A stretch of DNA of 64,000 nt, taken from the NCBI GenBank assembly GCA_010015585.1, contig ML975149.1. The stretch is one strand, 5' to 3'. Both the position numbers and the translations under genes were made by a program. Under the pieces are notes generated by a model. That model was not told where the DNA came from. It made no database searches and saw only the letters and a list, made by a program, of their open reading frames with translations. Shown here one piece after another: positions 1 to 22,500 of this stretch. Numbering within the stretch: position 1 is the first letter of the stretch; each line of letters opens with the position of its first letter. Origin of the DNA: Eremomyces bilateralis CBS 781.70. Taxonomy: Eukaryota.

Positions 1-1473
1 TCTGTGCGGTGTGTGGACCATTGAGCTAAGCTGTATGTGGTTTAGACTCATCACAGAAAATTTTCAATGTTAGGTAATGCGAACGCCTGAGGCTCCCAGG
101 CACTAACAGCATCCCCTCCCTCTTCCGGCCAGGCACCGATATGAGAATACATATCAATCAGGATTCGTCATTCGAGTTATAACAGACGTATCATGCACAC
201 CCATATCACGTCTATTTGCTAGTAACTCTGGTTCTGTTCTTTCAATGGGCAATCTCCTATTATGTCCATCAATGATCAACATGCCAGAACTGGAGGCTTA
301 AGCTACATTACATACTGTGTACGTAGTACGTACCACCTATTCCGGATTCCGTATTGTCCTTGTCGGCAAAGAGCACGGTACCTGGCGATGTGGAGCACTC
401 TAACGATTTTTGTACGAACTTCCAATCAGTCCTTGATTCCTTCCACCACTGCAAACCCTTTCGTATCCTACTGTCCGTATTTCGCTTCGGCTTTCTCCAA
501 CTAATGACACCGCAATTTAACAATTCAGAAGAATCCCACTGTCCACATTATGATTCATGCAAGTGAAAAGGGGTTGGATATTGAAAGGCTAAAAAGGGGT
601 CGCTCTCAAATCTCGCCAATAATGACGGGGTAATTCACGGCCGAAACCTACCCATGGTCCAATATCTGGTATCCTCCAACGTGAGCTTGCGCAAGTCGGC
701 AAGTCGTCCCCGACCTGGTGCCGACGCGCCGTGGTCGGTGGCAAGCTTGCGAAAGTTGCGATCCAAGACCGATGGACAATCTCGGCGGGCGAGCGGGACA
801 CAAGCGCCAACGAGAGGTCCGAAATGATGCTCCCAACTTCACGCCATCAGCAAAAGAAGCAATTGAACCTGGCCCCCTGCATTTTGCATGCCACGGGGCG
901 AATGTGAATCCTGGCATGAAATATTGATGATGTGAAAGCCGGAAGGAGCATCGATTCTTTCAGTATCGTGCCTTGACTCGGTGACGGCGGGCAATATCAA
1001 GTTATCAACTACTGATGGTGATGACAATCCGATCCCACCACGTAAAATAAATCCCGAATCGTGGCGGAACTCAGAAGGCGAAGTGGACCGCTGGCCGTGG
1101 AAGTGTCCTTCAGGGGTAGAAAACCAAGGTTCTCAATGAGTTGGGCACTTGAGCGATGGAACCGGCTAGCGGAAGTGCGGAACAATAGTCCCGTGGCTAA
1201 CGGCGTGACGGGACGACACTTGGAATCATGGACACGTCGGCATGGAGCAGCGTCGCGACGATACGAATTTGAAATGCCGAACGAGAAATATTACCATGCC
1301 GATGAGGATGCAAAATATTACGGTATCACCAGGAAGTCGGTTTATGTAGAATTAAACGCTTTCATGCGGGGTCGATTGATGTGGTGTAATACCTAATCCG
1401 AATATGATCATGCCCCGGGTCCCAGCTACTTATGTACATGAAGGATGAAAAAGAACCATACGCTATGAGGTTG

Positions 1474-3399
1474 TTACAAAATGGCTGCGAACGTCATCGC
1501 GATACAAGCCAGGCTCAATATGAACCTTGGACCTGCCACCGATGCGTCACCTGTTGTGGCGGGGGATAAAGGGGACGCGTTGGTGGACGGGCAGATTTTC
1601 TCCAGATCAGCCCCGGCCATGTCAATGGGAATCCAGACCTGGTTGATGGTTAGCATTACGTTGGGTAACAAGTGCGCGGTGTCCAGGCGTACCTGAGGCT
1701 CCCCCTTTGTCAGAGTGGTCAAAAACGACCCATATGCGCCCGTCTTGGTCGTTTGGCAGCTCAACACATCGACAATCGGAAGGCCGTCTTTCCAGTTGGT
1801 GTCACTGATAGTTAACGGACCGAAGTCCGGCGCAGTGGACCCCTTATTTGTCACAATGGATACTAAGCTCATATCAAACCCTTTTCGAGTCGCCACGACG
1901 TTGTTGTCAGAATAAACGAGCTTGCTCTTGTGCCTCCAGTAACCATTATATTGGGGGCTCTTCTCCCACCTCACAAACCAGTTGCGCGCCAAGTTGATTC
2001 GCTTTGTCATCTGGTACAGAGGGCTTGTGGTGTCGTAACCGGAGGTCCAGAGCGCCTCGCGGTTGTCTGGATCGGAGCCGCCAACGAATTCCTGTTCCTG
2101 TCCATAATATCCCACGGGGATTCCATCCCCCAGCATGGCGTAGACAATCGCGTTCTTGCGGTTCGAAATGTCCTGGATGGCGGAGCCGAAACGGGGGAGA
2201 TCGTGATTCTCGCTGAAGGTGCCGAGAAGGGTCGTGTCCGTGCAGTTGGCCTTTAGGTCGTCCAACGTTCCTTGTAAGTTGCCAGCGGGGTTCTCCGGAT
2301 GAGCGAAGATCTCCACGATGCGGTACAGGAGAGGGAAATTAAGGACGGCGTCCAGCCCATGGACCATGTATTCGCAGGCCTCTGATGGAACCTCCGTGTA
2401 GACTTCTCCGATGGTATAGGTGTTTTGGACGTGGTCATGGAAGTCCTCCCAGAAGTCCTTTCGCACGTGTTTCGTCGCGTCGATTCGGAATCCATCGACT
2501 TCAATCGGTCAGTATGTTTCCCAAGCTCGAACCGCCGGGTGTCCTTACTCGCGTATTTCTGGATGAAGTCGTTTGCCCAATCCTGGAAGAACTTGCGGAT
2601 TACGGGGGACTCGGTATTGATATCGGCGAGGGAGACCTCGTCATTTCCTAGCCAGCACTATCTCTATGTCAGATTGTGCTCCATGAACCTTGCGCGGAGA
2701 CATGCGTACCTGCTGGTAGTCCGTGGGATCGGTGTAATTGGTAATGGGGCAATAAGTGTGGAAAGAAGACTTTTGATTGAAAGGTGCGGGGAATTGGGCG
2801 TAATCGACTGAACTACCCGGGCCAGGCCATGCGAGGTTATTCATTAGGATATCGACCATTAAAAACTAGAGGAAACATGATAAGCGATGAGCATCGATAG
2901 CTGCTGGCAGGTCCACTCACCATGCCCCGGTCGTGAAGCGCTTTCGAAAGGTCCTTCAAGTCCTCATCGGTCCCGAAATGTGAGTTGAGTTGCGTGACAT
3001 CTTGCTGCCAGAAGCCATGATAGTTCTCTCCGGCCAGTGGCGAATCTACACCTTTGACAACTGGCGATATCCAGACCTTTTCGTTTGACGTTAGATTAGG
3101 AATAGGGGTAGTTGCACTGGGGAACATACGGCAGTGAAGCCCATATCTTGGATATAGTCCAAGTGGTCGATTATACCTCGCCATGATCCTCCACATCGCT
3201 TTTTGGCCTGCGTATCGCACAAGGCATCGGTACTGCCATCAGTGCGGGCGAAACGATCGGTGATAAGTTGGTAGATTGATCGGTCTCGCCAGTCATCGGG
3301 CGATGCCGCGCTGGCGCTGTGGATTAAGGCAAATAGTATTAAAATAACATTGAATAAAACGAATGGATTCGACAAAGCCGTCGAAGAAGCAGATACCAT
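1474..3399 (-). CDS. GH13 alpha-amylase-like protein, AgtA/AmyD type (secreted, likely GPI-anchored 4-alpha-glucanotransferase), 6 exons
   Basis: N-terminal signal peptide followed by [23 protein letters not shown]13 regions: DILMNN (I), [10 protein letters not shown] (II), GEVY (III), FSENHD (IV). Ser/Thr-rich linker and hydrophobic C-terminal tail (GPI-signal-like). Introns approximately 3129-3077, 2920-2866, 2709-2658, 2548-2499 and 1692-1639. Confidence 0.9.
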
Positions 3400-6300
3400 C
3401 GTGTTGATATCTCGTCAGGTCATCACGCAGATATGCTGAGTCGAAACGAGTTCCCCGGAGGTACCAAAGGGTGGAGGAGCTATAGGTAGTGGGACAGCCA
3501 CCACGAGAGATGAAATACGAGTGAGCACAAATCTGGAGAAGACGATGGGCGATCCTGGGAAGAAAAGCACTGGCACCAAACTCGACTCTTCCTCAAAAGT
3601 CAACACTCAGAAGCAGGACCTGTATTAACGAAAGACGGGAAACAAGTGGATCAAAAGAGGCCCAAAAGCACCGAGGGAACGACTGAAGAGTGAAGACTGA
3701 AGAGGTAGGAGGCTCAAACTGGACTGAGGGTCACAATGAAAAACCACAAAGCACGAGGAAAATCCTGCGATTCTAGCAAAGAGAAGGGGATCACACGCTA
3801 CCAGAAGAGACCCCATTGTGATTGGCGAAGGTCTGAACTCTGAACTCTGAAGGATCGAATGCCATGCCACAGTCGGTTGCCAGGTAGCCAATACAATAGC
3901 CAGTAGCGAAGTCTAGTGCCATCGATTGGATCCATTAATATTAGCCTCTCCCCAAAGCGGTAAGGAGGACTTTGAAGGGGGCTCCTTGTGAAGGCGAATA
4001 GCGAATTAGCGATAATGGAAGGGCAAATTTGATAGAGAATGCCCGCTGACCAGCAGCAGGGCGTTCGTATTAGGTAGAGAGTCGGAAGACCGAAGAGACA
4101 GAGAATTAATTCGGTTTGCTCTGTGATGATCCATTCATTGGCTTATGCCTGGGTCCGACGCTCAACCGCCAGGCAAGTCGGACCCCAACTGAGTTCGGGC
4201 GTTCAGGTGTTCAGGAAGAAGGGGCTTTGTTGTTCCTCTTCATATGATCAGATGAGGGCAAGCTTGACGGAAATCAGGGGATGTTCCTGGGAAGTGGGAC
4301 GTGAGAACTCTGGGGTGCTGCCCTATTAATAATGGTCGTGATCTCCATGGCCATCCAACGTTTGCAAACCCGACATGTAGATCTGCCACCTTTGATATGC
4401 TGATGTCCTACATTACATGTGGAAATACGGAAATCGGTTTCAACATCAAGGAACGGGAGGGAAGAGAATGGGTTAATTACTCCAATGAAGATTCTGGACT
4501 CTTGTGCGATTCGGATAGAATGGAACTCTCACGGCCCGGCTTCAGTACCTTAGCTTCTCCCCAGGGTCAGTAGTGGTAATGACAGATGAGAAATAAGCTC
4601 AACAAAGAGGATCCAACAGGGCGGTTCCTTGCGAAGATAAGCACTACCCAGTGCGGCTTGCACGAAATTCACGCTAACGGCCTTAGCCGCCGTTCTGTCG
4701 GAGGTATAGTGGGTCAGGCAAGAACTGAACCGGGATAAAGCTGACATTGTGTACTAGCTTGGCATGCTTGGTACAATGGAAATGGACTAACGCGCATTAA
4801 TCCCGCGCCACTCATTCTATTTCTCGGGACTCTCGCCTTCGGCCGTACAGGCATTACGGTCGTAGCGTGCCAATATTGCTTGACTGGTAATAAAAAGGTA
4901 CAAGATACTAGAAGTTACATAATAATACGTCAGCAGTCAGCATTGTACCAACCCCCTTGCCTAACAACCTGGCAGCCTTACTGCCTTCTGGTCCCAAACG
5001 AATGCAAGCGAACCAGCAGTTCGCGTTTAACTTGACGACAAAAATACTCTTCTGCTCCTCATCGTATTATCTGTCTCAGTATGATTGTATCAACCATTAA
5101 ATGTTTGTCATGTCATGGAGCGTGCTCTGTGATTCCAAACTGCATGTAGTTCCGTCTGAGTCTGATCTCTGAATATCCACCATGGATCCCCTTATTCTGG
5201 CCAGGTCCCTTTCGGCTGTAATTTGTTATTTTCCGCTACGGAACTTGCTTATTAGTTATTTGGGTCTAGTCCCTGCTCCATAATTTCTCCCTACCCTCGT
5301 CTTCGACGATGCACCGCCCGGGTCCCTAAAATACCTAAAATACCTCCCTACCAGGAAGCCGAGCCTGATGGGCTGGGAACTCCAAGCTCATCCAAGCCCT
5401 TGATCGAGAAAAAAAGTGCTTGGTGCTTGGCCTTGCTGATACCCTCGCCACAGTGAGCGGGAGCTACACACGTAATCCTAAGTATCCCGTTTTAGCTTCA
5501 CCGCCGTGCCCCGCCGGGACGCCTTGGATGTTTTCGATCGGTCCCGGTCCTTGTGTCAAGTCTATTGCATTCCCCCTGTATGAGCAGTTGAAGATCTGGT
5601 CAACTTCGAGAATGGTTCGACACCATCGTGCTGACATCTCCACCAACACCGGTGCTGGGTCAAGGGTGAGCCAAAAGTTTCTAGCGTAATCCCCTTTTGC
5701 CATATCGAGAACATTTACTCTGTGCTGTTGGACCTTCACTCGCCTCTGTCTTTTGATGATTATTATTGAGACTCCCCTGAGCCCTTCAGTTGGTACGCTG
5801 GTTGCTGTCGCCAGTTTCCATACACTTTCTTATCCCGCTTTAGCACAGCTCTTCAAACATCTTGCTTCCGTCCATGCCCTATTAGTATACCGCCACTACT
5901 CCTTAGTTGATCTTTAGACATTGAGGAATTCTCCGCTTTGTGGCAAGCTGAGTAAACATCATGCAGCGGGAAGACCCTTTTCCACTCAACGTGAACCCTG
6001 TCTAACTCCACATCCGGAAAAACACAACACATAGCTATTGTAATACAGTCCGGAGCTAGGGCATCGTGTCGCGAGCTCCGTTGTGTAAAGCAAAGCACGA
6101 TATTCACCCAGGAGAGCGTAATCAGCGAGTCCTTTCATCCCTCGTCAGCACCTTATTGTTCCAAGCAGATCGTGCGCCGCAGAACGTGATATACACAAGC
6201 CATGCTCTATCCGGTTGGGATAAGGATGAATAGACCCTGCAAACCTTGATCCGGGCATCCCCCGTGTTCGAAGGTCCTAACCAATTTTCGCACCCGCTAC

Positions 6301-6833
6301 AGGGAGACGGGCAGATGGCGTTCCAGCGATCCGTCACATTGGTCCGAACCCATCCCTGCTACTTCTCAGCCGCTTCGACATTGGTCTCGACACCGCCCTC
6401 TGCAAGTTGGCATGTCACCAACCTTATGGCTGTTGCACGCGGACTCGTCGGTCAACATGGAGACTGGACAGACTAGCCACCCAAAGCTAGTGTCCAAGAG
6501 GCTCAGGGCTGAGCCAAAAATACAACAAAGCTGATGTCTGTTGTCCGCCTGTCCCCTCATATCAAATTTCATTTAGTGGAGATCTGATGGTTAGGTAGGT
6601 AATCACCTTTCCTTACAGTCTTTTGGACAATCTTCGCAAGTCGCAACCTTCAACTTCAACTTCCCTAAACCTTCTGATATCGGGCGAAATGCCATTTGTC
6701 GTTTGACAAGTTAACCGCTATACACTCTCCGTCTTTTATTCTTGGATTTGTTGCATTTTGCGAGCCTCTTCGGTGTAATATTTGGAGCATCTTGCTTCGC
6801 CTAGGAGAGGCGAGGCATTCAAGCGATCTGGTC

Positions 6834-9800: not shown

Positions 9801-12800
9801 AGCAGCCATCATCAACAGGAAGGTGACTTGATCGAGGGCAATGTTGAAGACTTTCCACCGCGACGGTTCCCCCACGTATTCATCAATGGCCTTTTCAACC
9901 AATTTGGCTTTGACTCCGGGATGAAGAACCAGATGTCACTCAACAAAACTGGCTTTTGGAATTTCGACTTCATGGCGGACTGGCCCACCAATTTCCAGTT
10001 CAACATCTGGGGCATGAATCCCAGCGGCCAGCCTGACAAGACCTGGATCTACGGTGACGTCAACAAAGACAAGGTCTTGGACCGCCTTCCCCCTGGATCG
10101 TTGCTCGTCAACGTCGTGAACATTACGGAGTTTCCTAAACCTCCTTTCGCTGCTTGGCGTATTGTCCTGGACGATCGTGCCTTCAAGTACACCCTCCTAC
10201 CTACGGGGTCAAGCTCCGCGCAGTTAGCTCTGTTCTGTTTACTGTGGTTCTTCCCGCTCGCAATTGCTGCCGCCGTTGTGTATATCTTCATCAAGTCCTA
10301 TTACCAAGTGAAGTTCAACGAGATCGGTGCCGAGGAAAAAAGTGGTGCCCTCATCCCGCTTGCTTTGCGAAACAAGCTCCGTCGCCTCTCATCCGATGGT
10401 CGGGAGAAGGACCGGGTGTTGGGTGCTGGCATCCGGGAATCCTTCGACTCTCACCGCAGTCCATTTGGTGCTCTTCAAGCAGACGCTGGAGATCCTGAAC
10501 GTCGCACCGTCTTGATTGCTACCATGGAGTACGACATTGAGGACTGGAAGATCAAGATCAAGATCGGTGGTCTTGGTGTCATGGCCCAGCTCATGGGGAA
10601 AAATCTCGGTCACCAGGACCTCATCTGGGTCGTCCCTTGTGTCGGTGGCATGGATTACCCGATTGATCAAGTCGCGGAACCCATGTATGTGACCATCCTA
10701 GGCAAAGATTACAAAATCGATGTCCAGTACCACAAGCTACGCAACATCACGTACGTCCTTCTTGACGCTCCGCTATTCCGACAGCAGACAAAGAACGACC
10801 CCTACCCTGCTCGTATGGACGACTTGGACAGTGCCATTCTCTACTCCGCATGGAACTCGTGTATCGCTGAAGCCATTCGGCGATTCCCTGTGGATATCTA
10901 CCACATCAACGACTATCACGGTGCCTTGGCACCTCTGCACCTTCTTCCCGAGGTCATCCCTGCCTGTCTGTCTCTGCATAACGCAGAGTTTCAAGGTCTC
11001 TGGCCGATGCGTACCGAGAAGGAGAAGGACGAAGTGTGCAAGGTGTTCAACATCGACCCTGACACTGCTGCCAAGTACGTCCAGTTTGGTGAGGTCTTCA
11101 ACCTCCTTCACGCTGGTGCCAGCTATATCCGCGTCCATCAGAAAGGTTTCGGCGCGGTTGGTGTCTCCAAGAAGTATGGTAAGCGTTCATATGCGCGTTA
11201 TCCCATTTTCTGGGGTCTGTCCAAGATTCGCAGTCTTCCCAACCCGGATCCTTCGGATACAGGAGAATGGAATCCGAATGAGTATGCCGGGGCAACCATC
11301 ACCGTCGATCGCGAATTCGAGGCAGGCCGAGGGGACCTCCGACGCCAGGCACAAGAATGGGCAGGATTGGAGCAGAATCCGACCGCGGAGCTATTCGTGT
11401 TTGTCGGCCGTTGGTCGATGCAGAAGGGCGTGGATCTCATTGCGGATGTGTTCCCATCGGTTCTGGCGAACAATCCCAATACCCAGATCATTGCAATCGG
11501 TCCAGTCATTGACTTGTACGGCCGGTTTGCGGCGCTGAAGCTTGAGAAACTGACGAAGCTCTACCCTGGCCGTGTGTTCTCCCGTCCTGAGTTCACACAA
11601 CTCCCTCCATACATCTTCAGCGGTGCCGAATTTGCTCTCATCCCGTCTCGTGATGAGCCTTTTGGTCTCGTCGCTGTCGAATTCGGTCGTAAAGGCGCAC
11701 TCGGTGTTGGCAGCAAAGTCGGTGGTTTGGGTCAAATGCCTGGTTGGTGGTTCACCATTGAGTCGAACGCAACGAAGCACTTGATCAAGCAGTTCAAGAC
11801 GGCCATTAATGAAGCTTTGGCTTCCTCCCAAGAGACTCGTTCGATGATGCGTGCTCGATCTGCCAAGCAACGATTCCCAGTCGCTCAATGGGTCGAAGAT
11901 CTCAGCAAGCTACAATCTACTGCGATCAGGACTTCCAGAGAGAATTGGAACAAGTCAAAGGCATCTTCTGTCAGGAATATTTTCTCCAGTCGCCCCGGTA
12001 GCCGAGCAGGTTCGCCAAATGCTAGCCAGCTGGACATCAGCTGGCCATTACACGGCAGCCCTGGCCAAGATCAAGCCTTGATGTCCGCACCTCCTTCTCC
12101 ACTCCTCACCCCGAGACTTCCATACAGCGACAATCCGTCTCCTCGTTTGTCGGTGGCGACCACAAGCTCGTTTGGCGACCTCGCGCCTCCTCCCATTTCC
12201 GAGCGTGGCCTTAGCATCTATGGCTCCGTGACGTCGGATCAGAAGAGGGAGAGGCGACTTTCAAATCTCAGTATCCATTCCGTTGTCGGTGAGCGGACAG
12301 ATTTCGCCCTTCAGAAGGTTGACCCTTTCTTCACCGATTCCAGCGGACACTATTACCGCGAGTTCGAGAAGAAGCTCGACAATCTTGGACCGAAGAACTC
12401 TGAGACAGACCTCTGCATTGAGGAAATTATCACAAAGAGCGAGAAAAAATGGTTCGAGGAATACAGAGGGGCGAAGCTGGGCCAGTCGTCCAAGAACGCC
12501 TCGTCGATTTCGCTGCACAAAGGGCTGAAGAGACCGAGTCCTGGACTTGAATCATCTGCCTCTTCCATCCGCTCGTTCAGCCGTAATGGCCGTGGTGGAG
12601 AGGATTCTTTCTTCCACCATTACTCCGACGATGAGCTCGACGACACGATGAGCACCACCAGTTCATACAATGAGGAGTTTGAACTCGGTGAGAACTACAT
12701 TCCTCCGACGGGCCTGCGTCGCTTCATGCTCCGCAAGGTCCTTGACTGGCCCATCTACACCTTCGTTCTTGCGTTCGGGCAAATCATCGCTGCCAACTCG

Positions 12801-14128
12801 TATCAAATTACGCTTCTCACTGGTGAGGTCGGTCAGGGGGCCAGCACGCTATACGTTATTGCTAGCATCTATGCGATCACATCTGTCCTATGGTGGTTCG
12901 CGTTCCGTCGTCTAAAATCGCTTTGGGTTCTTTCCTTACCATTCGCCCTCTATGGTGTCGCCTTCCTTTTCATCGGGGTGGCGCCGTTCGTCAGTATGGC
13001 TGGTCGTGGTTGGGTCCAAAAGGTCGCGTCTGGTTTCTACACGACAGCATCATCCAGCGGTAGTATTTATTTCGCCCTAAACTTCGGTGATGAAGGTATG
13101 TCGATTTATTTTCCCCCTATATTTCCATCTGGCCAGCGCTAACTCGATACAGGTGGTGCACCTGTCAAAACATGGGTCCTCCGGGCATGCATCATTCAAG
13201 GAACGCAACAGATCTACGTTAGCGCTCTTTGGTTTTGGGGATCGGCGCTTAGTCGCCTATCTGATGAAGGTGTCGAGACGACCAGTGTGGCTCCTACGGC
13301 AGTTATCGCTGGTGTTTGTCTGCCAGTTGCCGTCCTATTATTCGCACTAGCAGTGATCACCTTCATGGGGCTTCCAAAGTACTACCATCAAGTTCCTGGC
13401 GCTGTGCCGTCGTTCTATAAGTCCATCTACCGACGAAAGATCATTCTGGTAAGTTTTTAGCATTCCAATGTGTCTCCTGGCGTATCCTGACATGTTTCTA
13501 GTGGTTCTTCGTCGCCGTCGTGATTCAGAACTTTTGGCTAGCCTCCCAATACGGTCGCAATTGGCGTTTCCTCTGGACAAGCCACAACACCCACAGTTGG
13601 CAGATCCTCATTCTCCTCCTCTTCTTCTTCCTTGGCGTCTGGGCCTTCTCTCTCTGGGTCTTGGGCCGCCTCACCAAAGCGCATTCCTGGATCCTCCCTA
13701 TCTTCGCCATTGGTCTCGGCGCTCCTCGTTGGTGCCAGATGCTTTGGGGTACTTCTGGCGTCGCCGCCTACCTCCCCTGGACTTCCAGTCCAGTCACCTC
13801 CGCTCTTCTTGCCCGCGCCCTGTGGCTTTATCTCGGCGTGCTCGATGCTCTCCAGGGCGTCGGGTTCGGTATGATCTTGCTACAGACCATGACCCGGTTT
13901 CATAATACTTTCGCCCTCATCGCGGCACAGTTCCTCGGTTCCATCGCAACCATCATCGGTCGCGCTATCGCCCCCAACAACCTCGGTCCCGGCCCTGTAT
14001 TCCCGAATTTTGCGTTAGGAGCAGGTGGCTTGGCCAACGCTTGGTTTTGGATCTGCTTACTGATGCAAATCGCGATCTGCATCGGATTTGCCCTCTTCTT
14101 CAGAAGGGAACAACTTTCCAAGCCTTAA
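6834..14128 (+). CDS. alpha-1,3-glucan synthase (Ags/Mok family), multi-exon
   Basis: Signal peptide, extracellular GH13-like domain (DRFVNGDPSND, DGFRIDKA), a TM segment, a glycogen-synthase-like domain (KIKIGGLG, HNAEFQG, PSRDEPFGLV) and a C-terminal multi-TM domain ending EQLSKP. ATG at 6834; GT-AG introns join the ORF-track pieces. Confidence 0.97.
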
Positions 14129-14689
14129 AAGGCTCTCGGTTGGATATTTGTATGAAAATTAGGATGAGCTGGGAAATTGTAATGTCTACTTTCTTATATG
14201 ATAACCCTCCTTCATAAGGATCTCATTTGGTTCGGTTGCTTGGGTCGTTTTCGGCAACGGCATTTGGCAAACGCATGGCATTGGAGTTTTGAATGGAGAA
14301 GGTGGTTTTATTTTCTGTAAATAGATCAAGTAGATACAAAATGATCTCTTAATGATACCATATTGAACTCTACATGCTGCGCCTATGTACTTCTCGTCAA
14401 AATCACAATCCATTAATAACTACATCAAAACACGTCGTGTGTACTCCAAAATTCAATCAATTGTGTATCAAAGTATGCTCTACCTCATAATTTTTATTTT
14501 TTTACATGTCTATACTTGTGTCTAGTGGAAAACGCTAATATGTAGTGAACTTGGCCGCGCCGAAACCGTGATCTAGCCATGGTTCCCGAGTTACGGTCAA
14601 ATGCACCTGGAAAACACGCATTAGATGTCATATAACGCCTTTCTCGATCGGTATTCACGCGAATATCCCATTTTTATGCACGATTTATG

Positions 14690-15390
14690 TTCATATTTCC
14701 CATTCGAAGTAAGGCGATCTTTCGAAGGTGGATGCTATATAGCATTTAATATTTCTGGAGGACCTTCTTGCATCTAAGACACCCTTTGGCAAAAGTGTCA
14801 TATTCTAGGCAGTGCCGTTATTTTGCCGCGGTGGCATCGGGCTCATCATCCCTTTAGATCGAATTGGACAGAGGCAGTGGCTTCGGGGCGCGAGATCCGT
14901 GTTCATAAATGGTAGGACGGAGAAGACCTAGGAATTAGCCCAAGATATCAAAATGGGAGTGTATACTCATCTCATTATGGGCCAAGAGATCGCCGCCGGT
15001 TGGTTTCGGTCGATAGCAAGCAACCCGACTTTTAAGAAGCGCGTGTATATCGCGACTATGGATAGGCTCTCTTTGGTGACCTTCTGGGGAAGTAGTATCC
15101 GTCTACAGCATGTATGTCAATCTTAGTAGTAGTCTCGTCATAACTGCTGTATTAGAAGAGTATAGAAGATCCTCTATTAAAAGGGAAACCTCGGGCTGCA
15201 TCATTGACTGCTTTAAACCACGACAAGGGATACCATCCCCTCTGAAACCCCTTCCCATTGTCATAGAGCGCATTTCTGCGTGATTTGAAATGAGCTAGTG
15301 CTTAATATCTTCTCGATAGTCAAAATTATCATATATAAATATATAATATAGGCATTCAGTTGCTGACTATATCGATGGACCGTCCCCAAG
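14690..15390 (+). pseudogene. RecQ-like (SF2) helicase remnant, probably transposon-borne
   Basis: Frame +1 from 14722 reads KVDAI*HLIFLEDLLASKTPFGKSVIF*AVPLFCRGGIGLIIPLDRIGQRQ...GVYTHLIMGQEIAAGWFRS...KRVYIATMDRLSLVTFWGSSIRLQH. This gives a Walker A (KTxFGKS), motif Ia (IIPL..IG..Q), a motif Ib-like stretch, and a degenerate DExH plus the RecQ WGxxxR loop. TAG stops occur at 14740, 14806 and 14929. Confidence 0.8.
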
Positions 15391-15396
15391 TTATAA

Positions 15397-16287
15397 TCAG
15401 TCGACATCTATACTGAGAGGCGGTAAGGATGCCTCTGCTTGTTCTGCCACAGTTTCGAGATGCCTGTGGACTCCCTTGTAGCCTTCACAAACCCCAAACT
15501 GGTGAAGAAGATCGAGGATACACTGTTTCACGCCATTTGAATGTAGAAAAACACCAAATAAGTGGGGAAACTTGTTGCTCCCTTCTGACGCCCGAGAATA
15601 GCAGAGAATGGACGTGATTATCGCAATCCTGTGGTTGAACTTGGCAGGATCCCGTGGTGGTCGATCTTTTCTCTCTGTCTTGGGCGCCATGAGGCCTTTG
15701 AGCAATCCACATAGAAGAGGAGCACGAGTGTTAACTTGCTCGTACATCTGCCCAAACTGCATGTCGCCTAGCATGCGCTCGTAGTCCTTGACTTTCTGAC
15801 CCTCTGACTGTTTCTCCCTCCCCACACCGGCAGGTGAAGTCTCCTCTTGGACACGGTCGACTTGGTAGGCACTAAACATACCTCCGGCTCCTTCCAGTTC
15901 CTTCATTTCCTTCCTCAGAGCCTTTACAGTGATAATTCCTGCCGCACCAGACGCGGGATGTTCTCGCAGTGCGTCTAAGACCTCTGGCTGACCGTAGACG
16001 GCCTCTGCGAGCCGTTTAGCACGCGTGGCAGGGCGCTCCCCATAACCACTTGACCCTTGAGTCGTCGCGTAGACATGGATAAATTCTCGTAATGTAATGT
16101 TTTTTTTCCGCATGAATTGGCATATCTCATTTACTCTCTGCGCCTTACTGCGTCTTTGAGACCCTCTTACCTTCTGACGAGGTGTATTAGATGTGTTTGA
16201 GGGTGCAATATGCTGAGGACTTGGAGCGGCTGGCAGGGTGAGCGGGTTCAACTGCACGCTCTGACAATGCTGGTTTTGGGCCGACAT
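15397..16287 (-). CDS. transposase-like protein fragment (N-terminal part of a DUF6589/Academ-type transposase), truncated
   Basis: 296-aa intronless ORF with RAPLLCGLL...SILCYSR...SNKFPHLFGVFLHSNGVKQCILDLLHQFGVCEGY. I recall this motif as lying just upstream of the catalytic region in fungal DUF6589-type proteins. The ORF ends where that domain would start. Confidence 0.55.
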   Translation of the reverse strand: MSAQNQHCQSVQLNPLTLPAAPSPQHIAPSNTSNTPRQKVRGSQRRSKAQRVNEICQFMRKKNITLREFIHVYATTQGSSGYGERPATRAKRLAEAVYGQPEVLDALREHPASGAAGIITVKALRKEMKELEGAGGMFSAYQVDRVQEETSPAGVGREKQSEGQKVKDYERMLGDMQFGQMYEQVNTRAPLLCGLLKGLMAPKTERKDRPPRDPAKFNHRIAIITSILCYSRASEGSNKFPHLFGVFLHSNGVKQCILDLLHQFGVCEGYKGVHRHLETVAEQAEASLPPLSIDVD

Positions 16288-16460
16288 GGCCCAAAATTAA
16301 ACCAATTATGGAGAAAAAGCAGGGGAATCGAATTCTTATGTTTAATTGATGGAGCACTGTGTGGTTGTGGATAAAAATGGAGTTAAAGATGGTCTTCCAT
16401 TTGGGATGAAAGTTGCCCGCACACACGCAAAAACGATGGACAGAATCCTCAGGCTACATA

Positions 16461-17167
16461 TTTGTTACCTCAGCAAGCTGAGGCTATTTGTGGTCGTGCC
16501 TGAGGCAACTAACTACACTATACCTAATCGGTAAATGCAGTTCTCGAACAAATAGCGTGAGGATCCTGTCAATGACGCATACTGACTGTTCGATAATTTA
16601 TATGTGTTTTTCACAATTTTGGAAACCTCACTTTTGCATATTCTTCAATAACAACACGAGGACTTATTATAATTGCCCTTAAATTCACTGGGCTGTGCAG
16701 CAAGATATACTTTATCTAGAATTTGAATTTTTTCCACTCCGGATGCTTGTGACTTGCAAAAAAAGCTGATATGTAAGAAACCAAACTGCAACAGAATCGT
16801 CAACCAACCACCGCAGTTCGAGTACCAGTTCGTAGCTATTCTCTGCTCTCTGGAGACGTTGGGTTCAGTCGTACGCTGCGCCGAGAGGAGGTTCGATCTG
16901 AAATCGTCCAAATTTCACTGGGTTGTCAAGAAACGATAGAGGATTCGATTGAACGTGTCAATTTTACTGTGTGATAGCTCGTTGTGGAGGAAAACGAGGT
17001 TGAAGTGATAAAATTGCTCTCATACAAACGATCTCGACTTGGGCCAAAAATCAATGACAGGATCCTTAGGCTATTTGGTAGAGGACCATACCAATTAGGT
17101 ATAGCGCGGTTCGTTGCCTCAGGCACTACCACAGTCCACAATGGCCTGAGCTTGCTGAGGTAACAAA
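16461..17167. repeat. ~115-bp imperfect inverted repeat pair (16461-16575 / 17051-17167) around a ~475-bp spacer
   Basis: The left arm TTTGTTACCTCAGCAAGCTGAGGC...GTGCCTGAGGCAAC...CTATACCTAAT...CAAATAGC...AGGATCCTGTCAATGA matches the reverse complement of the right arm block by block. Confidence 0.85.
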
Positions 17168-17177
17168 GGGGTGAGCC

Positions 17178-17434
17178 GGTGAGGCTCATTTCACATCCTA
17201 CTGTGCTCCATTCACACCCGCACCCCGCTCCATTTATTACCTCAGACTCTCAGGCACTTCGTGTGGGTAACCCATTTTGGGTTAGCGCCTTGGCGTCCCA
17301 CGAAGGGCCTGAGAGTCTGAGGTAACTGTGAATGGAGCACAGAGAGAGAGAGAGATTCATACGCCCGTCAGGCCTCTCAGCGAGGCCCATGTGGGGGTGA
17401 ATGGAGCACAGCGGGGTGTGAAAGGAGCTTCACC
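17178..17434. repeat. nested inverted repeats (17178-17215/17397-17434 and 17237-17267/17297-17325)
   Basis: CTGTGCTCCATTCAC pairs with GTGAATGGAGCACAG (copies at 17328 and 17397). TTACCTCAGACTCTCAGGC pairs with GCCTGAGAGTCTGAGGTAA. Confidence 0.85.
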
Positions 17435-18237
17435 CGTTCCCAGCTGCTCAGGGCTCACCTGACACACAAGCCACGACCCCCTGAATCGCTCAAGCCACAC
17501 GGTCTGAGCTCCTCTACTCTATTTTCAACTTTGACCTCGTAAACATTCTGTCTTCTTCTTCACGCAACGTCTTGAACCTATCACGCTTAGCTAGTAGACG
17601 TAGCGGTAGACTTACTAATATAACTCTATTTACTCCACCTCTATTGGTTCCGTGACAGCTTGAATCTCTCTCTCTCTCTCTCACACAGAACAATCAATCA
17701 ATCATCATCACAACCAAACCAAACCATAGCGTTATGCAAGATTTTGGAATTTCCGGTTTTGGCTAATCAGAATATACTAGTATTTTTGTGTCACGTGATT
17801 TATCTGTGCAAGGGGGGTTATTGGAGGGATTAGAAGGGGTCATTCTAGCATTTCCCTATAAAGAATAGAATGAGCGTGTTTTCCTAATCTAGTTAGCTGG
17901 CACCGAGTGCCAGTATTCTCTCAGTGTGAAATCCAAGTCTCCATCTTAGGTCGAAATTGAAACCAAGCGAATGAATCATAACTATTGTTCTCGCTCCCGA
18001 GATAAGAACGATAAGAATTGAAAACGATTATGCCCGTCACTGTAAGGGTCTCACTGTAGGGAATCTCCAATCGTGAGGCAAACATAAAATTGTTGCTATG
18101 AAGGAGGCATCTATCTAAAGTGCGCGAGGCGTTATGTGTCCTCGTGCTGCAGAGCAAACGGGCCACAAGGCCACAAAACATCCAGGTCCACAGCCCTCTG
18201 ATCCATCACAGTCACCTCAACATCCTCTATCGTCCTC

Positions 18238-18548
18238 CTAGGGGAGGAGGTCCTGGCCCGGCAAGAGAGATCCGTTATACTTAGCCTCCTTATGGGCTCG
18301 AGCAACCATGGCAGCCGAAGGGAAGTATTTGTCCAAATATGGCCAGAGCTCCAGGGATCCTGGGGTGTTGCGCCAGTCGCGCATCAGCTCTCCAAAAAGG
18401 GCAAACAACGATACAACCTGCACTCCAGCGTTTCTCATGCGGTGGTTTGCTTCGTCTCGGATGAATGTCGACGTCGTTGAAGATGCCTCCTGGTTGGCCC
18501 AGACGCTGTATCCGGCCTCGCGAAGAGAGAGGGCGACGAAGGTTGTAC
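18238..18548 (-). pseudogene. orphan 3' exon of an isochorismatase-family (YcaC-like) hydrolase
   Basis: After a CTGAC branch point and CAG acceptor (18551-18549) the exon reads (C)TTFVALSLREAGYSVWANQEASSTTSTFIRDEANHRMRNAGVQVVSLFALFGELMRDWRNTPG...LLPGQDLLP*. No upstream coding exon is visible. Confidence 0.75.
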
Positions 18549-19523
18549 CTGAGTATGCCAGTCAGCAATCTAGTCCGGAACCTCGCAATGGGATACATTA
18601 TTTATTCATTCTGTCATTATTTCCCGCGTTTGAGCCCAGACCTTTGATGGGGCGATTAGACACTCTCTACAAGACGTAGAGGGGAATTTGGAATATCATT
18701 GTCAACAAAACGAAATTCGGGAGATGCTGGCCTTAACACCAGACGTTGACTGTACTCTAACGATAAGAGTCAGCGTGACATTCCGAACAAAATTATCAAG
18801 GACATTCGAATGGAAGCATTGGATTAGATATCACAGCGCCATGCTGCATAAGATGGCATCCCGATTCACATACCGGAATCATATTGTCGCTATTGGATAA
18901 AAGGCCTAGTATGCTCCCTACCGAGCTCCCTTAAATAATCGCGGGTGTGCTAGCCGCAAATCAGCCCAGGATTGATACCATATTGCGGGGGAACGAAATC
19001 CAGACCAACGGGATTTAAGACGAACATAAGTTACATGGAAGTTGGAACAGGCACATAGTTTGATCAGATCTTGGTTCGAGATCTACGTCGTAGCGAAATG
19101 AGGTGGTCGAACCGGTCTACGATTTATACGATGGAGGATCTTAGGATGAGCGTAGACTTGCTCAGAGTTGAAAATGAATTCCTTGCCAAATTATTCGAAA
19201 CGTTGGATTCTTGCTCCGAGCTAGGAAGAGGAATTCTGACCGTATGTATTAGAATATGAAGCCTTTGAAAATGTAAGCTGATTTGGAGTTCACCATGAAA
19301 GCAGGCAGAACACCCTCATCATGTGACCCTTGGTCATAGGACAGGAGGGTCAACCACCGCAACTTCAATCGCTGCAACACATGTAGCCTCTGAGCCCAGA
19401 GGGGACAGCACACCATTCGAGAGTGCAGACTCCTTGTCACTACCCTCCACATGTGTCTAGTCCGGCAGCTGCCCCCAGTTTCTGAACGTCCCCTTCGGCC
19501 TGTCTAGTCTCAGTCGCATGTTC

Positions 19524-22500
19524 CTACTGTGGTGCTTGAGGTTCATCGACCTGCTTGTCTTCGCGTTCCGAAACAGGTCCATCCAGTCGATCAGCAGACC
19601 CCTCATGTCCATTCTCAATCGTGTCCAGCGCATCACCTTTCTCAGCCTCGCCTTCCGGACCGGGTACATTGCCTGTCACCCCCTCGACGATGTTTCCCTC
19701 TGCAAACCGCACTTGTTTCCTGCCTGGAGAACCTTCGCCAGATTCTTCCCCGGATATATCAGCGGGTATAATCTCTGTGACAACGGTGACTAGCTCAGTG
19801 TCCTTGGAATCAACTTCTTTAGGTGGTAACTTCGATTCTTGACCATTCACTGGAGCTGTTTCTGCCTTGGCACCGTCTACTACGATTAGACCGGGGTCTG
19901 AAGTGTGGTCGATGTCTGTCTCCAATGCAGGATCAGGCACGGCGCCGTTGCTCTGAGAATGGTCTGGTGGGCCATCAAGTAAGTTGTCGTCTTCCGTGAC
20001 AATATCCGCTTCAAGAGGGTGGTTTGAAGCTAGCGTCTCATCATCGGCCCGCATTGATTCGCCTTGAACAGCTGATGAAGGCTGCGTCTCCGCAATTTTG
20101 TCTTCTGCACTGGCAGTGGCAGTTTTCTCCGTACCGGACGGTTGCTCCGTACCAGAAGGCTCCACCACAGTAGGAGGTTCCTCCACAGCAACAGGCTCCT
20201 CCACAGCAGCAGGCTCCTCCGTAGCTACAGATTCTACCGCAGCAGAAGGCTCCTCTACGGTTGGTTCCTCCGTAGCTGGTTCCACCGCGGGAGTGGGCCC
20301 CTTTGCAGAAGGTTCCTCTGCAGTGGAAGGCTCCTCCGTAGCAGAAGGCTCCTCCGCGGCTGGCTCCCCCACGGCTGGTTCCTCCGCAGTCGGTTCCGCA
20401 ACTGCAGAATCTTCTACTCCGTGCTTGTGCTCTTGGGAACCTTGTGGTGTCTGCGCCTCGACAGATTCATCAACCCCAGGTTCAGCCTGTTGACCTGGAG
20501 AGGGTGCATCCACCTCTTTATTTCCAGGAGTTGCCGAGCCGGCAGGTTCTTCATCTTCCGTGTTATCCGTAGCACTCTTTGCCACAGCACCGGCACCAAC
20601 AGTTCCCAAGGCTCCGGCGCCTGCAACAGCAGCTGCCTCGCCCAAGGGCAAACCATCCTTTCCTCCCTCCTTCTCCTTCTCCAAGGCGTCTTCCAGCTCT
20701 TTAATCCGCAGTTTCGTGGCTTCGACGCCCGTAGACTGCTCAGCCAGCTGTGATCTCAATTGATCTACCAGATCTGCCGCTTCTTTGAGTTTCTTGAACT
20801 CCGCTGTTGCGTCATCGCGCTCCTTCAGCAGCGTCTGGAGCTGGGCAGTGTTTTTCTCAAGCTCCCCTTGGGCCTCTGCATGGGCTTTCTGTGCCTCGCC
20901 CAGCGCAGCAGCAGACTGGGACAACTGTTCGGTAATGTTTGCTAGGCTGGCGCTCCCGGCTTCAATCTCGCTCTTCAGGGATTCAATCTGTGACCTCGCC
21001 GCTTTCAAGTCCGATTCGACAGCTGCGTGGCCCTGCGCTTCGCTCTTGATCTGGTCGAGGGTGGCTTGGAGCCTAGTGTTTATGGCAAGATGGCTCTCCA
21101 GATCTCCGTTCAATGTTCCCAACTTTTCATTCGCAGTCTCCAGCTCCACCTTCGTGCTGGCATGCCGTGTCGTCTCCTCGGAAAGATTCGTTTGATGAAT
21201 GGTCTGCGCCTGTTCGTAGTCTTTCGTGAGCCGTTCGAGCTTGTCCTTGACCGTAGCAAGCTCGGCGGTAGCACTAGTGTGATTTGTCTCCAGCTCACTG
21301 ATCTTCACATTTGCAGCTTCGAGATCCGATTTTGCAGTGGCATGGATAGCAGTGACTTGACTAAGCTCGGCCTCCACTTTCGAGAGGGCTTCTTTTGCGC
21401 AAAGCAGTTGTTCACTTGATGCCTCGCCATTGACAGAGTTACTCGCAATGGTCTCATTCAGCTTCGCTATATCCGCTTGAGCTGTTTCAAGCGCCGCTTT
21501 GGCCGCATCATCGCTCTTGATGGCCGTCTCCAAATCTGACGCCAAACTTCCCGCCTTCGTATTTGCATTTGCGAGCTCCTCTCTTGTGCTATTGAGATCC
21601 CCGGTTACTTCGGCAAGTCTTGCGTCGATTTTGCCGTGCTTGGTCGTCCACCCCGAGATCTCATTCTGATTCGATTCCTCGATGGCTCGAACCGCATCCG
21701 CATGTGTCGATGTTAGTTGTTCAATCTCCGCTTCCTTCTCCGCAGACCGCTTCTTCGTCTCCTCTAGCTCCTTTCGCACGTCGTTGAGGGTAATCTGGGC
21801 TCTCGCATGATCTTGTTCCAAAGACTGGAGCTTATCTGCGTGAGAAGTAACCTCGAGTCGTTTGGATTCGAGTTCCTCGTTGATTGACTGGAACTCCAAC
21901 GCCAATGCATCAGCTTTTGCCTGAAGATCCGTTTTAAACTTCTGGCTCGCTTCAAGCTCTCTGGAACCCTGCTCTAGCTTCAGTAAAGCGTCCTGATGTT
22001 GAACCTTTAACGATCCTCGTTCCATGGTGAGGGACTCAACCTGGGATACAAGAGACGCGTTCTGAGAGGACAACTCGGCGTTCTCTGCATTTGCAGCCTG
22101 TGATGAAACTTGCAACGATTCGAGCGCTTCTTTCGCAGCCTTCAGTTCATCTTTGATGGTCTGCAACTCCGCTCTCGCTTCGTCCAGTTCGGCTTTCGCT
22201 GGACTGTCCTCAACGTTGTCCCCGTTCAGCACCGCTTCACGCGAGGCATCTGGCGCAGCTCCATCGGAAACAACTAGCTTTTCCCCGTATTCTTGCTTCA
22301 CGCGATCCTGTTTGTCATCAGCACCACGTTTCGTGAAAAATGAAATCGCCAGGAGGTACCTACCAGCTCCTCTTGATGGGTTGCCTTCAATTTCTCCTCC
22401 ACCGCCTCCCTTTCCACCTTCTTTGCTTCGTCAATTTTCTCCACCACATCTGCCGCGATTATTTCCTCCAGCTTGCTTCTCCGTTCCTCCAGCGCCTTCT

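Follow-up and report, generated by a model that had tools for sequence, protein, structure and literature searches.

A dead copy, very probably of a helicase-carrying DNA transposon with a DUF6589 gene, in Eremomyces bilateralis

The window analyzed here is a 64,000-nucleotide stretch of contig ML975149.1 of Eremomyces bilateralis CBS 781.70 (assembly GCA_010015585.1). At positions 14396 to 16464 it holds the remains of two genes lying tail to tail: a helicase gene on the plus strand, broken by stops, and on the minus strand the front part of a gene of the DUF6589 family (Pfam PF20231). We read this segment, called copy A below, as very probably a dead copy of a family of cut-and-paste DNA transposons of filamentous ascomycetes, about 6.3 kb long and bounded by inverted repeats, which carry the helicase and have DUF6589 as their second gene. 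An earlier note, made from the sequence alone, had described the pair and assigned it to an AcademH-like element.

The helicase relic starts at 14702..14729 (plus strand) with about 9 codons in which the start ATG is now ATT; the window reads ATT CGA AGT AAG GCG ATC TTT CGA AGG, compared to ATG CGG AAC AAG GCG AGC ATT CGA AGA at the helicase start of L003, an intact copy described below. A frameshifting deletion of approximately 180 bp follows codon 9, with loss of helicase residues ~10-69. The body of the relic (14728..15112, plus strand) corresponds to residues ~70-214 of a RecQ-like superfamily 2 (SF2) helicase of about 900 amino acids, spanning motifs I to II and the aromatic loop. Its three stops, at 14740, 14806, and 14929, are TGG>TAG, CAG>TAG, and GAT>TAG changes when compared to 5 other copies.

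Frame +1 was translated with X at the stops and used as the query in a HMMER search of 1.84 billion representative proteins, which gave 147 matches at an expectation value (E) of 1e-3 or less. The top match was P0010, a "DEAD-like helicase" of 895 amino acids from Metarhizium robertsii (E 1.9e-47, 69% identity), with relic residues 25-162 aligned to P0010 residues 69-214. In the alignment, motif I reads AKTSFGKSV / SKTPFGKSV and is followed by an IIPLDRIGQ block, motif II (VDELH) has decayed to MDRLS, and the RecQ-type WGxxIRPQY loop is kept. Pfam DEAD and Helicase_C were found in 11 of 11 full-length helicase matches scanned, P0010 among them, and 2 of these 11 also had a weak RecQ zinc-binding match. 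A twelfth scanned match, P0139, had no Pfam family and aligned with relic residues 188-234 alone; judged from its sequence, it looks like a DUF6589 gene whose antisense strand was called as an open reading frame (ORF). The relic translation itself had 0 matches in Pfam and 0 among PDB sequences, so the helicase homology is visible through close relatives alone. These results agree with the earlier note, which had read a RecQ-type helicase through the stops of frame +1. By blastn, window 14726-15112 matched L003 840-1250 at 75% identity, and helicase homology ended at 15112. The KIIIY string near 15320, taken in the note for a trace of helicase motif IV, is instead the antisense of the second-exon relic of the DUF6589 gene (15116-15386, IYDNFDYRE...).

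On the minus strand, the first exon of the DUF6589 gene is still open (15397..16287; ATG at 16287, 296 codons plus a stop) and encodes the N-terminal part ahead of the Pfam DUF6589 domain. The ORF at 15397-16296 was 65-73% identical to the N-terminal part of 7 proteins (best E 4e-112), all 7 of which carry PF20231, in line with its earlier description as the N-terminal half of a DUF6589 protein. The window ORF has no Pfam match because it is the part that precedes the domain. P0003 residues 1-363 mapped onto 16287-15142 by tblastn (E 3e-141), and tblastn and a hidden Markov model of the family both carried the match on through stops to approximately 15116, including an invariant YDNFDYRE stretch; from 16287 to 15116, the minus strand covers a DUF6589 protein up to residue ~360. 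The second-exon relic (15116..15386, minus strand; tblastn and hmmsearch) reads ...IYDNFDYREDIKH, a stop, and LISNHAEMRS... It has two stops, with first bases at 15369 and 15297 (CGT>TAG and CAG>TAG), and a frameshift near 15142. Comparison of the window with L003 placed the remnant of a short intron at 15387..15430 (minus strand; 5' border uncertain), and the 3' splice AG of L003 is TG in the window. The first-exon frame reads into this intron and stops at 15399-15397, the same ending as in the intact first-exon ORF of L003. The ORF stop at 15397 is therefore due to the short intron and is not a truncation point.

The ratio of nonsynonymous to synonymous substitution rates (dN/dS) against L003 was 0.146 for exon 1, 0.48 for the exon-2 part, and 0.24 for the helicase part; the corresponding values between intact copies were 0.31, 0.11, and 0.155. 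The idea that selection has kept the exon-1 ORF (dN/dS 0.15; 0 stops compared to 5 in 225 neighboring relic codons) was rejected as unsupported. At 125 columns that do not vary otherwise, exon 1 shows 8 unique changes, five of them clustered beside the mutated zone; the intact L003 has 8 as well. The 3' splice site is gone, and among the contigs listed for the run guessed as RNA, none is identical to this copy. Among other contigs, 14 of the 30 listed exon-1 differences were synonymous. We read the open exon 1 as a matter of youth and chance.

Metagenome contigs were scanned with P0010, which identified eight loci. Two soil-metagenome loci contain intact elements: L003 (6435-bp contig, 6300-bp element) and L004 (6418-bp contig, 6289-bp element). 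Each has an open helicase gene (935 codons in L003 and 933 in L004) with Pfam DEAD and Helicase_C and, on the opposite strand, a complete two-exon DUF6589 gene, both between inverted ends. The L003 helicase ORF lies at 632-3439 and its DUF6589 gene on the minus strand at 6175-5378 plus 5271-3448; L004 is alike. In both elements the 3' ends of the two genes are less than about 140 bp apart, tail to tail. The inverted ends are 22-24 nt long and 86-88% complementary, with the tip TTACCTCAGGCACTCAGGCC, and are located at 133-154 and 6413-6434 in L003 and at 122-145 and 6387-6410 in L004. Homology among L002, L003, L004, and L006 begins exactly at this tip. L008 has the tail-to-tail junction as well, and L005 has it marginally (E 9e-4, over the 20 residues that remain up to the contig end). 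Of the 5 loci whose sequence continues beyond the helicase, 4 show it. PF20231 was found in both full-length DUF6589 proteins scanned (E ~2e-67), and many close DUF6589 relatives lie on metagenome contigs of 6.1-7.0 kb. A protein-atlas search with P0007 returned DUF6589 clusters alone, and one with P0176, PF20231 excluded, returned no usable match. The note's proposal that helicase and DUF6589 gene stand tail to tail in one mobile element is thus borne out by the same layout in both of these elements.

Helicases of the RecQ type have a DExH motif II and an aromatic loop of the WGxxFRPxY type. The L003 helicase reads VDELHLVALWGSGIRPQY across this region and so has the core feature of RecQ-type SF2 helicases. 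Its 31 best PDB matches were all RecQ-family proteins (RECQ1, WRN, RecQ, and RECQ5; E 2e-17 to 2e-11); RECQ4 and BLM came next. DEAD and Helicase_C alone passed the Pfam cut-offs in the intact helicase; neither an RQC nor an HRDC domain was found at E of 1 or less.

Copy A follows L003 on both sides of a gap. Window 15116-16433 matched L003 5008-6321 at 76% identity by blastn; matches end at 15112 (L003 1250) and resume at 15116 (L003 5008), which places the internal-deletion junction at 15113..15115. The deletion is 3757 bp long (L003 1251-5007 missing) and took the helicase after residue ~214, or its 3' three quarters, and the DUF6589 protein after residue ~370, or its 3' three fifths. Since the window is collinear with L003 840-1250 and then 5008-6321, one deletion removed both 3' ends, as the earlier note had supposed. 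The left subterminal region, upstream of the helicase gene, was recognized by blastn at 14396..14701 (plus strand), with 14408-14585 matching L003 317-494 and 14422-14731 matching L007 2-295. The region upstream of the DUF6589 gene occupies 16288..16464 (minus strand; blastn, with a match by eye continuing to about L003 6343). Copy A stops approximately 90 bp short of the right end of the element and is without the right inverted end. For the left inverted end, 14129-14400 compared no better than shuffles with the first ~200 bp of 4 elements; the left side is truncated or eroded. A 20-mer at 14227 resembling the inverted ends (18 of 20 letters, counting transitions) was tried as the left end and was not significant.

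The stops had been called consistent with repeat-induced point mutation (RIP); 2 of the 3 helicase stops and 1 of the 2 exon-2 stops are TGG>TAG or CAG>TAG changes. With thresholds of TpA/ApT >0.89 and (CpA+TpG)/(ApC+GpT) <1.03, however, no part of the relic passed the RIP indices (0.47-0.91 for the first and 1.15-1.75 for the second). The segment 15116-15396 alone reached the first index (0.91), with a second index of 1.25. This segment (G+C fraction 0.39) has the sole RIP-like bias in the locus, an excess of transitions: C>T and G>A make up 32 of its 51 differences, and CpA is the site of 9 of 15 C>T changes and TpG of 7 of 17 G>A changes. In exon 1 and the helicase part, transitions were equal in both directions. 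The sign of RIP at this locus is weak.

L007 (266-1378) holds a second decayed helicase copy, whose 371 codons include 7 stops, each at a W or Q codon. It has two stops at the same codons as the window and several derived residues in common with it (HLIF, KKRVYI, and IRLQ). This likeness reflects either parallel RIP-type mutations or common ancestry of a dead lineage.

From these comparisons, the history of copy A can be proposed. The intact element has terminal inverted repeats of 20-24 nt and two convergent genes, gene 1 for a RecQ-like SF2 helicase of about 935 amino acids and gene 2, in two exons, for a DUF6589 protein of about 860-900 amino acids that we take to be a DDE-type transposase. 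In copy A, a single 3.76-kb deletion left the two genes with their 5' parts alone, joined tail to tail, and a second, small deletion together with the ATG>ATT change killed the helicase start. Point mutations, some possibly of RIP type, added five stops, and both inverted ends have been lost. Two miniature relatives sit beside the dead copy.

The larger of these, copy B (16465..17163), is a 699-bp non-coding miniature derivative recognized by blastn. Its inverted ends are about 110 bp long, and its repeats I2-I4 are 83-93% complementary. Its left subterminal piece corresponds to L003 230-491 and its right subterminal piece to L004 6086-6410. In the parts they share, copy B is only 57-60% like copy A, and it is therefore a separate insertion. 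As many as 16 different contigs from a single DNA run lie over copy B, and contigs with 5-15 differences overlie the exon-1 region in DNA runs of the same organism; these variant contigs indicate that the family has further copies in that genome. In one DNA run, the right end of a B-like copy (17163) was joined to the left end of another (16465) with 7 letters between them, which indicates two miniature copies head to tail somewhere in the genome. Copy C (17237..17325) is an 89-bp mini-element made of two perfect canonical ends (TTACCTCAGACTCTCAGGC) around 51 bp, forming inverted repeat I5. Copy C and an (AG)n run lie within 17173-17439, between two further 50-nt inverted repeats that are 82% complementary. 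In this segment GTGAATGGAGCACAG is found twice in direct and once in inverted orientation, and many contigs pile up at 17284-17417. The segment has the look of a different small family of repeats.

All ten ends read T-TA-CCTCAG / CTGAGG-TA-A, so that a TA duplication in a TTAA target is indistinguishable from an end that starts with TTA. Both flanks were available for three copies, namely L004 (aggattttcg / tcacgttt), copy B (tacatatttg / caaaggggtg), and copy C (gctccattta / ctgtgaatgg), and none of the three had a target-site duplication of 2-10 bp beyond the ambiguous TA. The result is weak because all 3 copies are compromised: the right flank of L004 is merely 8 bp long and at the contig end, copy B abuts copy A, and copy C lies inside a nest of repeats. 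The earlier note had called for longer copies, inverted ends, and target-site duplications; intact 6.3-kb metagenome elements with inverted ends were found, but no duplication was seen.

Outside the left end, CACGTG, mostly as ATCACGTG, was seen at a distance of 25-55 bp in L003, in L004, and in L002, where it occurs three times with a period of 12 bp; the regions concerned are L002 1-157, L003 1-133, and L004 1-121. The motif was also seen in the flank of another copy, visible as a loose contig end at window 16465, and in the tail of L001 (~3048), some 50 bp ahead of a TTACTCAG; it was absent in L006. It is near 4 of 5 left ends, and the whole window contains 7 CACGTG. CACGTG could mark a target preference, or the true terminus could lie further out.

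AcademH is reportedly one lineage among the DNA transposons called Academ, said to have been introduced by Kojima in 2020 in Mob DNA 11:15. AcademH and KolobokH are the fungal DNA transposons named with DEAD/Helicase_C helicases in the available part of PMC10799480. Target duplications of 9-10 bp for AcademH and 3-4 bp for AcademX are given in the part of PMC10045372 accessible to us, and low-copy AcademH elements are placed in Ascomycota, Basidiomycota, and Mucoromycota by accessible passages of PMC10799480, PMC10045372, and PMC12210899. An RNase H-like profile of Academ (RNase_H_Academ.hmm, 465 positions) is contained in Supplementary File S1 of PMC5751038; in the portion at hand, D3, N4, D6, D450, and E454 are near-invariant, position 5 is W, F, or I, and Y401 is invariant. 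DUF6589 has an invariant DNF[D/E], like the D-N-[W/F/I]-D of the Academ profile, and DN[WFI][DE] was present in 51 of 79 family proteins compared to 3 occurrences in 67,901 residues of other proteins.

We scored three collinear blocks that use 23 of the 465 positions of the Academ profile, taken from that same portion. The score was 31 bits for P0162, P0006, and P0008, and was equalled by 0, 1, and 0 of 200 shuffles, respectively. Three distant members scored 21-26 bits (equalled by 18 of 200 shuffles for P0175, 1 of 200 for P0176, and 0 of 200 for P0177), and 52 unrelated proteins scored at most 22 bits. Candidate catalytic residues in P0162 numbering would be D286 in DNFD, D445 in GDQ, and E655 or E699. 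A pairing by eye of NYAFEML with profile position 401 was unsupported, the second block (399-415) alone not being significant. As a comparison of sequences, the match to the Academ profile is support for an Academ origin of DUF6589, not proof. DUF6589 clusters also have a suitable fungal range, with Basidiomycota commonest, one Mucoromycota cluster, and the ascomycetes found here. We infer that the DUF6589 protein is a DDE-type transposase and that the helicase assists transposition, and we think it probable that the family is part of AcademH, a lineage within the Academ superfamily. For the AcademH claim of the earlier note, then, the layout of helicase and transposase, the type of helicase, and part of the Academ profile agree, whereas the 9-10-bp duplication was seen in 0 of 3 copies.

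Several points weigh against reading copy A as an Academ element with these two genes. L001 has a helicase without a DUF6589 gene in the 600 bp downstream. The three copies with both flanks lack a target duplication of 9-10 bp or of any length. The three-block score of the distant member P0175 was equalled by 18 of 200 shuffles, as given above, and family members are non-independent tests. Single Academ blocks are weak; among background positions, equally good scores were reached by block 1 at 22 of 188,027, by block 2 at 141 of 186,587, and by block 3 at 11 of 186,747. The third block fitted best at NYAFEMLYLK (E655) and not at DRSLE (E699), which had been chosen by eye. Positions 16-66 of the profile, in the portion at hand, had no clear likeness to DUF6589. 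The DUF6589 profile had no similarity to solved structures among PDB sequences, where a chance match to NUP93 had E 0.42. As a separate observation on L001, ~110-bp tandem repeats at 2580-2950 follow its helicase gene, in the place of the DUF6589 gene of other copies.

These results leave more than one possible scenario. The element could be real and yet not Academ, with DUF6589 as a separate, undescribed lineage of helicase-carrying inverted-repeat transposons that make no duplication or a TA-only one; we hold this doubtful, but regard it as the most serious of the alternatives. Neither a 9-10-bp nor a 3-4-bp duplication was present in the three copies, all ten ends have the same T-TA-CCTCAG form, CACGTG stands 25-55 bp outside 4 of 5 left ends, and the Academ profile match covers 23 of 465 positions. 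In addition, no paper was found that ties DUF6589 or PF20231 to a transposon or to Academ, in a search that did not extend to the bioRxiv supplements, and the supplements of PMC10799480 contain none of the terms DUF6589, PF20231, and Academ. An Academ assignment, on the other hand, agrees with the DN[WFI]D motif and with the score of the collinear blocks; DUF6589 has the fungal range stated for AcademH in the available parts of the sources above; and all three copies in the duplication test are compromised. A stricter form of this scenario, somewhat less likely again, is that elements with DUF6589 plus helicase are distinct from AcademH and have ends TTACCTCAG...CTGAGGTAA without a classical duplication, or with TA in TTAA only, beside ATCACGTG. 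If so, they may target CACGTG-bearing (E-box-like) sites or insert with the help of the helicase by a chemistry that differs from that of known DDE transposons.

That the element is KolobokH, the fungal Kolobok lineage with a RecQ helicase, seems improbable. The target duplication of Kolobok is TTAA, and TTAA flanks none of the ten ends. KolobokH is fungal and has a RecQ helicase, which in Kolobok-1_CCri is on the complementary strand, according to the part of PMC9587614 available to us. In KolobokH as described there, however, the helicase is downstream of the transposase domain on the same strand, whereas here the genes converge from opposite strands. The same part of PMC9587614 gives a C/DxxH signature as common to Kolobok, and in DUF6589 no C/DxxH is conserved in the interval from the candidate second D to the candidate E: the conserved residues H480, H493, H533, and H608 have A/S, Q/K, L, and F, respectively, at position -3. 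The KolobokH core sequences (FDCSWSH... and IDGDLDSNK) look unlike DUF6589, and 4 DUF6589 motifs were absent from the PMC9587614 supplements. Very improbable, finally, is a third alternative, in which a cellular or telomere-linked RecQ helicase gene decayed into a pseudogene that merely lies beside an unrelated gene fragment. Repeated subtelomeric RecQ helicase genes do occur in fungi, as the accessible part of PMC4522978 describes, and the nearest solved relatives of the L003 helicase are cellular RecQ helicases. However, the helicase is linked with DUF6589 inside inverted ends in independent contigs, one deletion accounts for both truncations, and the intact helicase has DEAD and Helicase_C without RQC or HRDC at the cut-offs given above. 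No TTAGGG array or other telomere repeat was found in the window, which gives no sign of a subtelomeric position.

The G+C fraction of the window falls from ~0.54 to 0.42-0.48 across 14000-18000. A large glycosyltransferase gene with GT1 and starch-synthase-like domains lies upstream of copy A and extends to 14128; we take it to be an alpha-1,3-glucan synthase, and the relic is within ~300 bp of its 3' end. On the other flank is a coiled-coil gene (minus strand, 22430 to 19524). Searches for tRNA genes (12000-20000) and Rfam families (13500-18500) found none, and there is thus no sign that insertion was targeted to small-RNA genes. Window-identical contigs span 13872-15465 in DNA runs of the same organism. 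One run is guessed to be RNA, and in it a contig of 8.4 kb from the glycosyltransferase gene (window 13800-14259 in its last part) stops at 14259 and is followed by adapter; this end is about 130 nt beyond the glycosyltransferase stop codon and just ahead of the transposon relic.

Other DUF6589 genes gave two further observations. P0188 (Bisporella sp., Leotiomycetes) and P0189 (Ilyonectria destructans, Sordariomycetes) were 91% identical over 250 DUF6589 residues, a likeness that suggests possible horizontal transfer of the element between fungal classes. In Metarhizium anisopliae, gene models P0005 and P0229 have a Piwi domain fused with DUF6589. An element copy in or beside an Argonaute-type gene, merged with it by the gene caller, is the likely source of these fusions.

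The window copy is dead and of local interest alone, and the element is ordinary, but it suggests a role for the uncharacterized DUF6589 family. DUF6589 is widespread in fungi, and a concrete, testable role can now be proposed for it as the transposase partner of a RecQ-like helicase in a 6.3-kb element. The family should aid repeat annotation and the clean-up of fungal gene models, such as the fused Piwi-DUF6589 models and the helicase or DUF6589 fragments called as genes. L003 and L004 provide intact reference copies for asking what a helicase does in a cut-and-paste element.

Among known systems, PF20231 has no function assigned in Pfam and is carried by all 7 relatives of the window ORF and by both full-length proteins scanned; the window ORF differs in being the part ahead of the domain. 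A preprint (bioRxiv 10.1101/2025.10.24.684071), in its available part, proposes DUF6589 as a possible virulence factor or epigenetic regulator, whereas the evidence here points to a transposon gene. Telomere-linked RecQ helicases, in the portion of PMC4522978 at hand, are like copy A in being repeated, often degraded RecQ-like genes; this locus, in contrast, is non-telomeric, and its helicase is paired with DUF6589 inside inverted ends in the intact copies. KolobokH, in the available text of PMC9587614, is likewise a fungal DNA transposon with terminal inverted repeats and a RecQ helicase, but its TTAA duplication, C/DxxH, and same-strand downstream helicase are all unseen here. AcademH could be compared by description only, from partly available sources, and its stated 9-10-bp target duplication was unseen in the 3 readable copies. 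The likeness to AcademH is that L003 and L004 combine a putative transposase and a DEAD/Helicase_C helicase in one fungal DNA transposon, that both have terminal inverted repeats, and that DUF6589 gives a partial match, at D-N-[W/F/I]-D and two further blocks, to the Academ profile.

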